Made by a program: the position numbers and the translations under genes
DNA from: a virus
Lineage: Duplodnaviria; Heunggongvirae; Uroviricota; Caudoviricetes
DNA: 6,095 nucleotides
Strand: one strand, 5' to 3'
Virus record (IMG/VR): IMGVR_UViG_2534682255_000031
The notes under the pieces: model-generated
Told to the model about the DNA's origin: nothing
The model's input: the letters and a program-made list of their open reading frames with translations, nothing else
Database searches by the model: none
In this document: in pieces, positions 3,491 through 4,838 of the stretch
Position numbering within the stretch: the stretch's first letter is position 1
Layout: every line of letters starts with the position of its first letter

Positions 3491-3964
3491 CTATTTCATA
3501 AAAATAATCCAGTGGGTTTTATCGTTTTTTCCTGTTCGTTGACCGATAACAGGTTTTCTGTCGGTCAGTACCAATATCTGGCGAACAGGTATTTGCGTTT
3601 CATTCCATTTAAAAATCAGAACGCCGGATGGACGCAACACACGAAAGGCTTCTTTAAATCCCTGCCGCAAATCATCACGCTAGGTATCTTTATTCAGCCG
3701 TCCATATTTCTTTCCCATCCAGGCGTTATCACCAACACGCTCAAGATGCGGAGGGTCGAATATAACCATCGAAAAAGATGCGTCTGCAAATGGTAGTGCA
3801 CGAAAATCAGCTATCAGATCAGGACTGATAATCAGGCGTCGTCCATCACACAATGTGTGCTCTTCCTTTCTGATATCGCTAAATATCGCCCGGTCGTCAT
3901 TCTTATCGAACCAGAACATGCGACTGCCACAGCACATGTCGAGGATTGCTGCATGTCCAGTCAC
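3491..3964 (-). pseudogene. Small SAM-dependent (amino-)methyltransferase, about 156 codons, interrupted by an in-frame TAG at 3680-3682; GTG start at 3964
   Basis: AAAGGAGG lies 6 nt upstream of GTG 3964. Motif I-like ILDMCCGSRMF and motif IV-like VIFDPPH precede the TAG; the same frame continues as RDDLRQGFKEAFRVLRPSGVLIFKWNE... to TAG at 3491-3493. The track shows only the 5' portion (3680-3997). Confidence 0.7.
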
Positions 3965-4305
3965 TGGCTGCCTCCTTTGCGAAGCCGTTCCGCCCATTCT
4001 TCAAGGGATTTCTCTGCATATTCACCGGACAGGCCATCAATCGGATGCGATTCATTAGCTAACTCTTCTTTTGCTGACAGAATCATGCGTGTAACGTCGA
4101 AAACTTCAGCCAAAGGCTTATTGATAAATCCGTGATTGAAAGCAGCAGCAAGACGGCTTGCGGTATAGTTAATACCCTCGTTGCGAGCCTCAGCACGTAC
4201 TTCATCGAATTTACGCACCAGATACTCAGCATTTGTTTCATTCACTTTCAGATCTCGCGGTACACATTTCCCGCGAAGAAACCCTTCCATTTCGAAAACA
4301 TTCAT
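3961..4305 (-). CDS. Hypothetical phage protein, 114 aa, translationally coupled to flanking genes
   Basis: ATG at 4305-4303 overlaps the HD gene stop (ATGA); its own TGA stop (3963-3961) overlaps the methyltransferase GTG start (GTGA). No recognisable motif. Confidence 0.6.
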   Translation of the reverse strand: MNVFEMEGFLRGKCVPRDLKVNETNAEYLVRKFDEVRAEARNEGINYTASRLAAAFNHGFINKPLAEVFDVTRMILSAKEELANESHPIDGLSGEYAEKSLEEWAERLRKGGSQ

Positions 4306-4838
4306 GCGCATTTGTGTAACTCCGATAACTCGTTAAAACGTTCCATAAACATCCCGTAGGCATGGCTAGGTGCCAGTGGAATCACGTTGAACATCTCTGT
4401 TGCCGGGATGCCTTCCAGTACAGGCCAGAAAGAGCCATCATCAAGCCCGAGATCGCGGCGTTCGGTTGCCAGCATGATAAGATCGGCATATTTCACGGGC
4501 GTACTCATAACTGGGGGTAACCCGTATTTCTCACGGATTACGGCGTCAATTTTTTCTTCCATCCGTTTATAGTCAGGAAGAAGGCGTTTCAGTGGAGCGG
4601 GGATGTCCTGGCAATACGCTTCTGTTGCATCATGCATTAATGCTTCAAAAGCAAATTCCTGCGGTACCAGCTGGCTGCAAAGAACCGCATGTTGGGCGAC
4701 GCTGTAGAAGTGCGAAAGATGACCGGCAAAGCGACAGATATTTGAAAGGGAAACCGCGATATCGTTAATATCGATGTCGTCTTTATTTATCCTGTCATAA
4801 TAAAAATGCTTCCCGGAAAAAGTTTTAATAAATGACAT
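4302..4838 (-). CDS. HD-domain phosphohydrolase, YfbR-like 5'-deoxynucleotidase family (resembles prophage YfdR-type proteins), 178 aa from ATG at 4838
   Basis: GGAG lies 6 nt upstream of ATG 4838 (the track start at 4865 is a GTG with no SD). Motifs SVAQHAVLCSQL and EALMHDATEAYCQDIPAPLK fit the H...HD metal-binding signature and the YfbR-like pattern. Confidence 0.7.
   Translation of the reverse strand: MSFIKTFSGKHFYYDRINKDDIDINDIAVSLSNICRFAGHLSHFYSVAQHAVLCSQLVPQEFAFEALMHDATEAYCQDIPAPLKRLLPDYKRMEEKIDAVIREKYGLPPVMSTPVKYADLIMLATERRDLGLDDGSFWPVLEGIPATEMFNVIPLAPSHAYGMFMERFNELSELHKCA

Follow-up and report, generated by a model that had tools for sequence, protein, structure and literature searches.

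Three consecutive genes on the minus strand of a 6,095-nucleotide stretch of DNA (IMG/VR record IMGVR_UViG_2534682255_000031; the whole stretch is called the window here) run into one another through overlapping stop and start codons, and the question that this locus raises is whether they form a working module. An earlier note, made from the letters alone, held that they do: an HD-domain phosphohydrolase, a small protein, and a methyltransferase would be co-translated stoichiometrically and could act in nucleotide-pool manipulation or host takeover, possibly as a relative of the yfdQRST cluster of Escherichia coli K-12. The three open reading frames are indeed there (4302–4838, 3961–4311, and 3491–3964). 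The set, however, is a mosaic juxtaposition in decay, without the status of a conserved functional unit or a new functional module, and only yfdR and the small gene are still intact in the copy carried by E. coli O157:H7. The reading that we favor, with a probability of about 0.87, is that a lambdoid, Stx-phage-like prophage integrated at dusA in O157:H7 once carried an early-left accessory operon, of which a block of ~2.2 kb survives here.

To place the window, we compared it with E. coli chromosomes. Those of O157:H7 match it at 100% identity and with the same RefSeq annotation, and by this match the window is identified as a degraded dusA-integrated prophage of O157:H7, already annotated so in RefSeq. 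The locus is already known, being annotated in hundreds of O157:H7 genomes, and yfdR has been studied in K-12. A prophage of O111:H- strain 11128 (NC_013364.1, 4956964–4965437) sits at the same dusA site with the same genes and is 99.95% identical over window positions 3191–5384, with identical YfdR and small proteins. It retains what the window has lost in whole or in part: an XRE repressor, yfdP, a full yfdQ, an intact methyltransferase, DUF551 gene remnants, and a full 3′–5′ exonuclease. The blastn alignment to the O111 locus comes in two parts, window 956–3191 to locus 1–2237 and window 3191–5384 to locus 3701–5894, and the identity ends at 5384/5385. Two deletions explain this arrangement. 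The first took away the region with the repressor and promoter, along with yfdP and codons 1–146 of yfdQ, and the second took 1.46 kb downstream. The latter, of 1,463 bp, joins the start of a 138-aa open reading frame to an exonuclease remnant (“missing N-terminus” in PGAP) and so makes a 65-aa open reading frame (3147–3344, minus strand), which bounds the surviving block on its downstream side.

At the upstream end of the block lies what is left of yfdQ (DUF2303; 4966–5384, minus strand), with only the C-terminal 128–139 codons present. It matches PF10065 at E = 1e-32 over profile positions 148–269 of 269, is identical to residues 147–274 of K-12 YfdQ at 123 of 128 positions (96%), and is likewise noted by PGAP as “missing N-terminus.” Directly 3′ of the yfdQ stop, inside the 127-nt spacer between yfdQ and yfdR, is an imperfect hairpin (4919–4966, minus strand) with 22-nt arms that are 73% complementary. 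The folding stability of the spacer is not significant (z = −1.8), and Rfam returned no family match for the hairpin and none at gathering score in the window.

The HD-domain gene (4302–4838, minus strand, 178 aa, with a GGAG Shine-Dalgarno at 4845–4848) is intact and is named yfdR by PGAP. The homology check proposed in the earlier note comes out clearly in its favor here: the product is a full-length counterpart of K-12 YfdR, identical at 173 of 178 residues (97%) without gaps. It matches PHROG 318 (E = 1e-109), a family annotated as dNMP phosphatase, and the closest solved structure is PDB 2gz4 (Atu1052; E = 3e-14), relative to which the metal and catalytic residues are kept (VAQH50, H69-D70, E73, D78, and A-D119). 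We take the protein to be the YfdR orthologue and a predicted metal-dependent phosphohydrolase, which by orthology would be an HD-domain 5′-deoxynucleotidase and DnaA-binding protein. Its dN/dS relative to K-12 is 0.07, indicative of strong purifying selection, and yfdR is found in 2971 of 5426 complete E. coli genomes (55%) at at least 90% nucleotide identity. The selection on yfdR and this wide presence are compatible with a retained host benefit instead of pure decay.

The relation to YfbR, the housekeeping HD-domain 5′-deoxynucleotidase of E. coli (PF12917), is a loose one. The two proteins belong to the same superfamily and have an H-D-A-x-E...D-x-P-x-P-x-K core in common, but they match locally over just 40 residues at 33% identity, and YfdR falls below the Pfam gathering score for PF12917 (24.4 against 25.9 bits) and far below the NCBIfam cut-off for the YfbR equivalog (NF003009; 19.9 against 122). 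YfdR is best placed in a separate phage lineage, as a distant relative of YfbR and not as its orthologue. Neither YfdR nor the small protein nor what is left of YfdQ had a match in a PADLOC search for anti-phage defense systems.

The small gene (3961–4311, minus strand, 116 aa) overlaps yfdR by 10 nt and is preceded by GGAG at 4320–4323. Its product, identical to WP_001242740.1 of O111, consists of a YfdS-type N-terminal module (aa 1–36/42) fused straight to an Eae C-terminal module (aa 37–116), with matches to PHROG 583 over aa 1–42 and to PHROG 614 over aa 36–116 (E = 9e-58). Its similarity to YfdS is confined to aa 1–42, and it has no similarity to YfdT. Close relatives are named “Eae protein,” “ead/Ea22-like,” or “DUF4752,” and in an alignment the longer ones (160–202 aa) have a central coiled-coil segment that the small protein does not. 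We place the gene in the mosaic Eae/Ead/Ea22 family, as a minimal form. Some of the longer relatives with the coiled-coil segment are tagged Pfam PF13935, and a Pfam search of the small protein itself gave no match. The AF2 model of the small protein was poor (pLDDT 51, pTM 0.35) and was dropped from the fold search. The conserved 36-residue N-terminal module common to YfdS and Eae proteins is always found 3′ of yfdR.

Next, we examined the junctions between the three genes. The overlapping codons are real: plus-strand TCAT at 4302–4305 is minus-strand ATGA, and TCAC at 3961–3964 is GTGA. At the first junction, however, the small gene more likely starts at ATG 4311 than at ATG 4305. The GGAG at 4320–4323 is 8 nt from the former and 14 nt from the latter, and homologues retain the N-terminus MRMNVFEM or MKQMSLIEM, which fits ATG 4311. 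The coupling signals described earlier are present, but the overlap with yfdR is probably the 10-nt ATGCGCATGA, also used by PGAP and by K-12 yfdR/yfdS, rather than ATGA. For the methyltransferase gene, a start at GTG 3964 is well supported: AAGGAGG (3971–3977) lies 6 nt 5′ of it, and PHROG 954 and homologues start at the same position (P0001 with a Met there). A stop/start overlap combined with an internal Shine-Dalgarno was our criterion for coupling, and both junctions have this combination: GGAG-N8-ATG4311 over TGA 4302–4304, and AAGGAGG-N6-GTG3964 over TGA 3961–3963. The overlaps do not exceed expectation, since four-base overlaps are the rule in phage early operons: of 36 pairs of same-strand neighbors annotated in the early regions of RavenCo17, A118, and ZF40, 22 overlap by exactly 4 nt. 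The overlaps are therefore no evidence of a special module.

The third gene (3491–3964, minus strand, 157 codons) carries an in-frame TAG at 3680–3682 (minus strand), which the earlier note overlooked. This premature amber codon replaces Trp95 (TGG), and the gene is a nonsense pseudogene of a class I SAM-dependent (DPPH-motif) methyltransferase. PGAP calls it “SAM-dependent methyltransferase, internal stop,” and RefSeq marks it as a pseudogene. The change that makes the stop, C→T at 3681 (G-to-A on the coding strand), is the sole difference from the intact O111:H- 11128 copy over 2.2 kb; the intact allele in O111 is WP_000145671.1, with TGG at codon 95. The gene encodes SAM motif I, ILDMCCGS (aa 7–14), and motif IV, FDPPH (aa 69–73), and matches PHROG 954 (E = 5e-85) and PADLOC MTase_II (PDLC03288/oMTase; E = 1e-73). 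Trp95 is invariant among 45 diverse homologues, as are D9, C12, and D70-P71-P72-H73. In the AF2 model (pLDDT 93.5), W95 opens helix 95–109, and the stop would remove half of the methyltransferase fold, namely this helix and strands 110–121, 140–144, and 150–156 of the Rossmann-like core. The protein does not match YfdT. K-12 YfdM, a “putative methyltransferase,” was considered as a remnant of the same family and shows no similarity. Identity with M.EcoGIX (SAY), a known orphan recorded for O111 strains, was ruled out by the location of that enzyme's gene on a plasmid, pESBL.

The report on yfdQRST mentioned in the earlier note exists (Noguchi & Katayama 2016, PMC4776307). When present in multicopy, yfdQRST inhibits the initiation of replication in K-12, where YfdR binds to domain I of DnaA; for this phenotype yfdR required yfdQ together with yfdS or yfdT, whereas deletion of yfdQRST had no initiation phenotype (PMC4776307). 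CPS-53 genes also affect stress tolerance in K-12, and passages of the same report that cite Zimmerman et al. 2008 describe K-12 YfdR as a weak dNMP phosphatase with low nucleotide affinity (PMC4776307). Compared with CPS-53, the window is alike from the kept part of yfdQ (96%) through yfdR (97%) to the first 36–42 residues of the next gene, including the 10-nt overlap and a spacer that is equally 127 nt long and similar in the part compared. It differs from CPS-53 in lacking residues 1–146 of YfdQ, in having an Eae-type C-terminus where YfdS has a DUF551 domain, and in having an unrelated methyltransferase pseudogene in place of yfdT. As a whole, then, the module is not homologous to yfdRST: YfdR is its only full match, the small protein is a partial one, and the methyltransferase is none. 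When we looked in the window for the inhibitory set, intact yfdQ was absent and so were yfdS and yfdT, and therefore the minimal K-12 combination (yfdQ plus yfdR plus yfdS or yfdT) is absent. Work on YfdR and DnaA in EHEC should take into account that this copy is without the partner genes that the K-12 effect requires.

The Stx2-converting phage Stx2a_1447 (AP012536.1) has the early-left order cI, yfdP-like, yfdQ-like, yfdR, and a 116-aa small gene, all 5′ of xis/int. Its small gene is 94.8% identical to that of the window, and the overlaps of 10 nt and 4 nt recur, but an unrelated 268-aa open reading frame follows in place of the methyltransferase. The placement of these genes between repressor and xis/int in intact relatives bears out the suggestion that they are nonstructural. 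The order in such relatives is repressor, yfdP, yfdQ, yfdR, Eae-like gene, variable gene(s), exonuclease, PrtN/xis, and (int), and transcription would run leftward from the immunity region upon induction. The genes are packed with 4–10-nt overlaps and internal Shine-Dalgarno sites, and therefore ribosomes could re-initiate from gene to gene. In K-12, YfdR with YfdQ and YfdS or YfdT damps initiation at oriC when overproduced, a plausible host-takeover role in the ancestral phage. In O157:H7, the unit decayed through the upstream deletion, the 1.46-kb downstream deletion, and the change of Trp95 to amber.

Could the three genes nevertheless be a functional, co-translated module in which an HD nucleotidase, an adaptor, and a methyltransferase act stoichiometrically on nucleotide pools or in host takeover? 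The stop/start overlaps with good Shine-Dalgarno sites, the occurrence of this gene trio in intact form in O111:H- and a number of further strains, and the dNMP phosphatase annotation of the HD family speak for it. We nevertheless hold it to be very improbable. The generic 4-nt overlaps add nothing to it, and the yfdR–small gene–methyltransferase order is a minority one: of 5426 complete genomes, 2971 have yfdR and 945 have the methyltransferase, but only 297 have the full order. Elsewhere in E. coli the methyltransferase comes after DUF977 in a Qin-like prophage, and the gene 3′ of the small open reading frame varies (yfdT in K-12, the 268-aa frame in Stx2a_1447). The replication/early modules of RavenCo17, A118, and ZF40 have no HD gene beside their methyltransferases. 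The pairing is thus conserved neither within E. coli nor in distant methyltransferase-bearing phages. For the O157:H7 strain, truncation at an invariant Trp largely refutes the module: with the nonsense codon, the mosaic unit, the truncated yfdQ, and the unconserved pairing, stoichiometric co-expression of three enzymes is impossible there. It could be objected that the TAG does not inactivate, either through read-through or suppression or because the 94-aa N-terminal fragment itself functions; the TAG allele is fixed, the exact 61-mer around it occurring in 202 complete-genome records, and the gene has no further lesions. This is scarcely credible. No tRNA or suppressor gene was found in the window, the fragment is without the helix and strands listed above, PGAP calls a pseudogene, and the lack of other lesions reflects recency because the whole 2.2-kb block is nearly identical to O111.

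We consider it unlikely, though far less so, that the prophage is decaying around a domesticated yfdR that, perhaps along with the small gene, would be kept and expressed for a host benefit, as a DnaA-domain-I brake on initiation under stress or as a dNMP phosphatase. The gene is intact between two broken neighbors, its dN/dS is low, it is widespread in E. coli, and in K-12 YfdR binds DnaA and CPS-53 genes touch stress tolerance (PMC4776307). Against this, deleting yfdQRST in K-12 leaves initiation unaffected, and the partners needed there are truncated or missing here. The block is one base off O111, which leaves too little time for decay, and therefore an intact yfdR cannot be taken as a sign that selection has acted in this lineage. 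Selection during phage life could account for the low dN/dS. A search for sigma-70-like promoters on the minus strand of 3300–5500 also gave no match, and one 5′ of yfdP in Stx2a_1447 gave nothing informative. The two intact genes could still be expressed from a weak or nonconsensus promoter or by transcription that reads through on the strand antisense to the tail genes. We therefore retain the reading of the block as a survivor of the early-left operon, in which the apparent three-enzyme module resolves to a decayed mosaic and the discovery value is small.

What remains of note is the methyltransferase family, whose members are uncharacterized and very small in size; an intact allele could merit biochemistry. 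Small phage class I enzymes of PHROG 954, such as Listeria phage A118 ORF50 and Pectobacterium phage ZF40 gp20, have the same ~155-residue core and share the LDxCCGS and FDPPH motifs with the window copy at 52–75% identity; they lie in early/replication modules with 4-nt overlaps, and unlike them the window copy is amber-truncated. The family is 47–65% identical across phages of Enterobacterales, Acinetobacter, Vibrio, Bacteroides, Gordonia, Listeria, Streptococcus, and Staphylococcus. Structure searches pointed to no more than a class I fold of generic type, and the matches included N2-G RNA methyltransferases; no target-recognition domain was recognizable in the 157 residues, and we found no experimentally defined substrate for any family member. 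The third gene encoded a compact amino-methyltransferase, most likely a phage orphan nucleic-acid methylase that would shield phage DNA from restriction. There is a small chance that the family is something other than an ordinary sequence-specific DNA methylase: a nonspecific or single-strand DNA methylase, an enzyme acting on RNA or a nucleotide, or one that depends on a partner; a partner is suggested because a large DNA methyltransferase adjoins in two phages. A weaker idea than this one is that the 36-residue N-terminal module of YfdS and Eae proteins may be a docking element by which C-terminal domains of varying kind are joined to YfdR. In practice, the O157:H7 dusA prophage remnant has clean lineage markers in the Trp95-amber allele and in the junctions left by the two deletions, at about 3191 and at 5384/5385.

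Many E. coli O157:H7 chromosomes carry 100% identical copies of window positions 3400–5000 (megablast), and in NZ_CP022050.2 the window region lies between zur and dusA as a short, degraded prophage, with a partial dusA copy as its left bound and a tyrosine integrase adjoining dusA on the right. When RefSeq/PGAP features were converted into window coordinates, the minus strand held yfdR, annotated as a 5′-deoxynucleotidase (4302–4838), a gene for a hypothetical protein of 116 aa (3961–4311), a SAM-dependent methyltransferase pseudogene with an internal stop (3491–3964), and a DUF2303 (yfdQ) fragment without its N terminus (4966–5382), and the plus strand held a phage tail-tip (J) C-terminal fragment (5370–6092). 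The stop in the methyltransferase frame is a TAG at 3680–3682 that went unnoticed in the earlier note. E. coli O111:H− 11128 carries a fuller version of this prophage at the same site, in the order XRE repressor, yfdP, yfdQ, yfdR, a gene whose 116-aa product is identical to that of the window, an intact methyltransferase gene, DUF551 gene remnants, a full 3′–5′ exonuclease, and a PrtN-family gene. From 3191 to 5384, the window and O111 differ at a single base, 3681, which is T in the window and C in O111, and this difference turns TGG (Trp95) into TAG. Across the family Trp95 is invariant, and the helix of residues 95–109 begins with it; the truncated methyltransferase would lose this helix and three core strands. 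A 61-mer containing the TAG is exact in 202 complete-genome records, which among the matches listed are O157:H7 or unlabelled for serotype, and in a further 189 records the same region has one or more mismatches; among the matches listed, these are annotated as intact.

Identity to O111 ends at 5384/5385, where yfdQ codons 1–146, yfdP, and the repressor region are gone and yfdQ′ stands head-to-head with the J fragment. At ~3191 the window also lacks 1,463 bp that O111 has, and this second deletion joins a short ORF to a 3′–5′ exonuclease missing its N terminus; identity to O111 is 98.7% in the left block (956–3191) and 99.95% in the right block (3191–5384). In CFSAN004176 (locus L005, NZ_CP014583.1, 5473–8333), an IS600 is placed precisely at the join of a less-truncated yfdQ′ with the J remnant, a hint that IS-mediated deletion produced the O157:H7 junction.

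The earlier note proposed comparing the HD protein with both YfdR and YfbR, and the likeness to YfdR held over its full length. The protein is identical to K-12 YfdR at 173 of 178 residues without gaps, matches PHROG 318 (deoxyribonucleoside 5′ monophosphate phosphatase, E=1e-109), and aligns with the solved HD protein Atu1052 (2gz4, E=3e-14) with the motifs VAQH, HDAxE, and AD kept. It has the catalytic core alone in common with housekeeping YfbR and scores under the Pfam and NCBIfam cut-offs for that family. Judged by these alignments, the HD protein is YfdR and not a YfbR orthologue. Of 5426 complete E. coli genomes, 2971 have yfdR; yfdR-like DNA at a coverage of at least 80% was counted in 2948 of the 5426, with as many as 4 copies in one genome and identities mostly of 95–99% at the nucleotide level; dN/dS between the window and K-12 genes is 0.07. 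The finding mentioned in the earlier note, that the overexpressed K-12 cluster yfdQRST interferes with replication initiation, is indeed published: in multicopy, yfdQRST suppresses the over-initiation of hda-185, and the smallest effective set is yfdQ and yfdR with either yfdS or yfdT; purified YfdR binds DnaA in an interaction for which DnaA Phe46 is important; and deletion of the cluster has no phenotype in K-12 (PMC4776307). In the window's yfdQ–yfdR spacer, an imperfect minus-strand hairpin with 22-nt arms (4919–4966) lies directly 3′ of the yfdQ stop, and a short stem resembling a terminator, with a T-run after it, lies at 4894–4907, also on the minus strand; the overall fold of the spacer is without significant stability (z = −1.8).

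Homology of the other two products to YfdS and YfdT, also raised earlier, was limited to part of one of them. The small protein matches YfdS at residues 1–42 alone (88% identity) and does not match YfdT. By PHROGs, it joins a YfdS-type N-terminal module (phrog_583, aa 1–42) to a C-terminal module (phrog_614, aa 36–116), and the related proteins of Stx and P22-like phages, which go by the names Eae, ead/Ea22-like, or DUF4752, are mostly 160–202 aa long; in the alignment it is a minimal form, with the N-module directly on the C-module and the central coiled-coil segment missing. Structure prediction for it was unusable (pLDDT 51). Window 4203–4311 encodes the ~36-residue N-terminal module (aa 1–36), MRMNVFEMEGFLRGKCVPRDLKVNETNAEYLVRKF, common to YfdS, Eae, and Ea22-like proteins, which otherwise carry unrelated C-termini; the module directly follows yfdR in every locus inspected, and it marks a recombination boundary within the gene.

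The three genes had been described as linked by overlapping stop and start codons, implying co-translation. The tetranucleotides are indeed present on the minus strand, ATGA at 4305–4302 and GTGA at 3964–3961, and both junctions have a Shine-Dalgarno sequence within the upstream gene. At the yfdR/small gene junction, GGAG (4320–4323) lies 8 nt ahead of ATG 4311 and 14 nt ahead of ATG 4305, all small-protein homologues in the alignment have three or four residues before a conserved V/L-F/I-E-M, and the K-12 yfdR/yfdS overlap is 10 nt, as here. Thus, the true overlap at this junction is most likely ATGCGCATGA rather than ATGA. The GTGA overlap stands, because AAGGAGG (3971–3977) is 6 nt ahead of GTG 3964 and both the PHROG profile and the methyltransferase homologues begin at that codon. 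These overlaps are compatible with translational re-initiation, but exact 4-nt overlaps occur in 22 of 36 adjacent same-strand pairs in annotated neighbourhoods of three unrelated phages (RavenCo17, A118, and ZF40). In phage early operons overlaps of this kind are the default, so those in the window carry no special information about a module.

Nor does the arrangement itself support the functional module that had been proposed. Counted as at least 80% of window 3400–5000, it is found in 297 genomes, versus 2971 for yfdR and 945 for the methyltransferase. The place after the small gene, which the methyltransferase occupies in the window, is taken by yfdT in K-12 and by an unrelated 268-aa ORF in the Stx2-converting phage Stx2a_1447; a DUF977 gene precedes the methyltransferase in a Qin-like prophage, and in RavenCo17, A118, and ZF40 the methyltransferase belongs to replication/recombination modules and has no HD gene near it. 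From these counts and neighbours, we conclude that the trio is a mosaic of juxtaposed genes, as is typical of lambdoid early-left accessory regions. The earlier observation is thus partly confirmed and its interpretation partly supported, and the feature is neither new nor unusual.

What remains of interest is the unusually small, widely conserved methyltransferase family, of which the window supplies a dead copy only. Queries of 157–168 residues, with the stop masked (X) or repaired (Trp), matched PHROG 954 (E=5e-85) and, weakly, Pfam Methyltransf_11, and were unrelated to YfdT and also to YfdM. An intact homologue, P0001 (95% identical), matched PADLOC MTase_II (E=1e-73) and also oMTase, and its AlphaFold model is confident (pLDDT 93.5). 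The family comprises ~2000 clusters at 50% identity, with 47–75% identical homologues in phages of Pectobacterium, Gordonia, Acinetobacter, Bacteroides, Staphylococcus, Listeria, Vibrio, and Streptococcus; at 47–65% identity, it extends to phages from several bacterial phyla. Among the invariant residues are D9, C12, D30, R32, D70-P71-P72-H73, and W95. The position of FDPPH behind strand 4 points to an exocyclic amine as the methylated group; annotation gives DNA as the substrate, which is putative and unproven, and we found no experimentally defined substrate for this family. Members (window 3491–3964; P0001–P0268) are only ~157 aa, with the FDPPH motif and no evident target-recognition domain, and some enterobacterial members reach 248–255 aa through a C-terminal extension. 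The small methyltransferase gene overlaps a large annotated DNA methyltransferase gene by 4 nt in Gordonia phage RavenCo17 (L009, 1430–3480), where the large gene is upstream, and in the unrelated Pectobacterium phage ZF40 (L011, 2998–5624), where it is downstream, which could reflect partnership or mere clustering of methylases.

In intact relatives, these genes lie between the repressor and xis/int. In the ancestral phage, leftward transcription of these genes would have set out from the immunity region upon induction, with translation perhaps passing along the genes through re-initiation. Together with YfdQ and a partner of the YfdS or YfdT type, YfdR may have damped host oriC initiation or degraded dNMPs, and the methyltransferase may have modified phage nucleic acid in restriction evasion. 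In O157:H7 the set is probably non-functional as a unit, and at most yfdR and the small gene might still be expressed, from a putative promoter; a search of the minus strand from 3300 to 5500 gave no sigma-70-like match.

At the other end of the element, the partial dusA copy (1319–1423) marks the left attachment site. Beside it, a 178-aa ORF (1567–2103) matches PHROG 4350, of unknown function (E=2e-103), has no Pfam match, and probably represents cargo of the prophage at its att end. Just beyond the prophage, a 318-aa DUF2713 family gene (1–957; Pfam E=1e-143) is intact in the window and annotated as frameshifted in O111 11128 and CFSAN004176. Outside the window, at 17121–19118 of locus L001, three genes with a DUF1076 domain, which we take to be that of NleG-type type III effectors, lie downstream of the same remnant's tail-fibre genes, and the decayed prophage may therefore be retained as an effector carrier.
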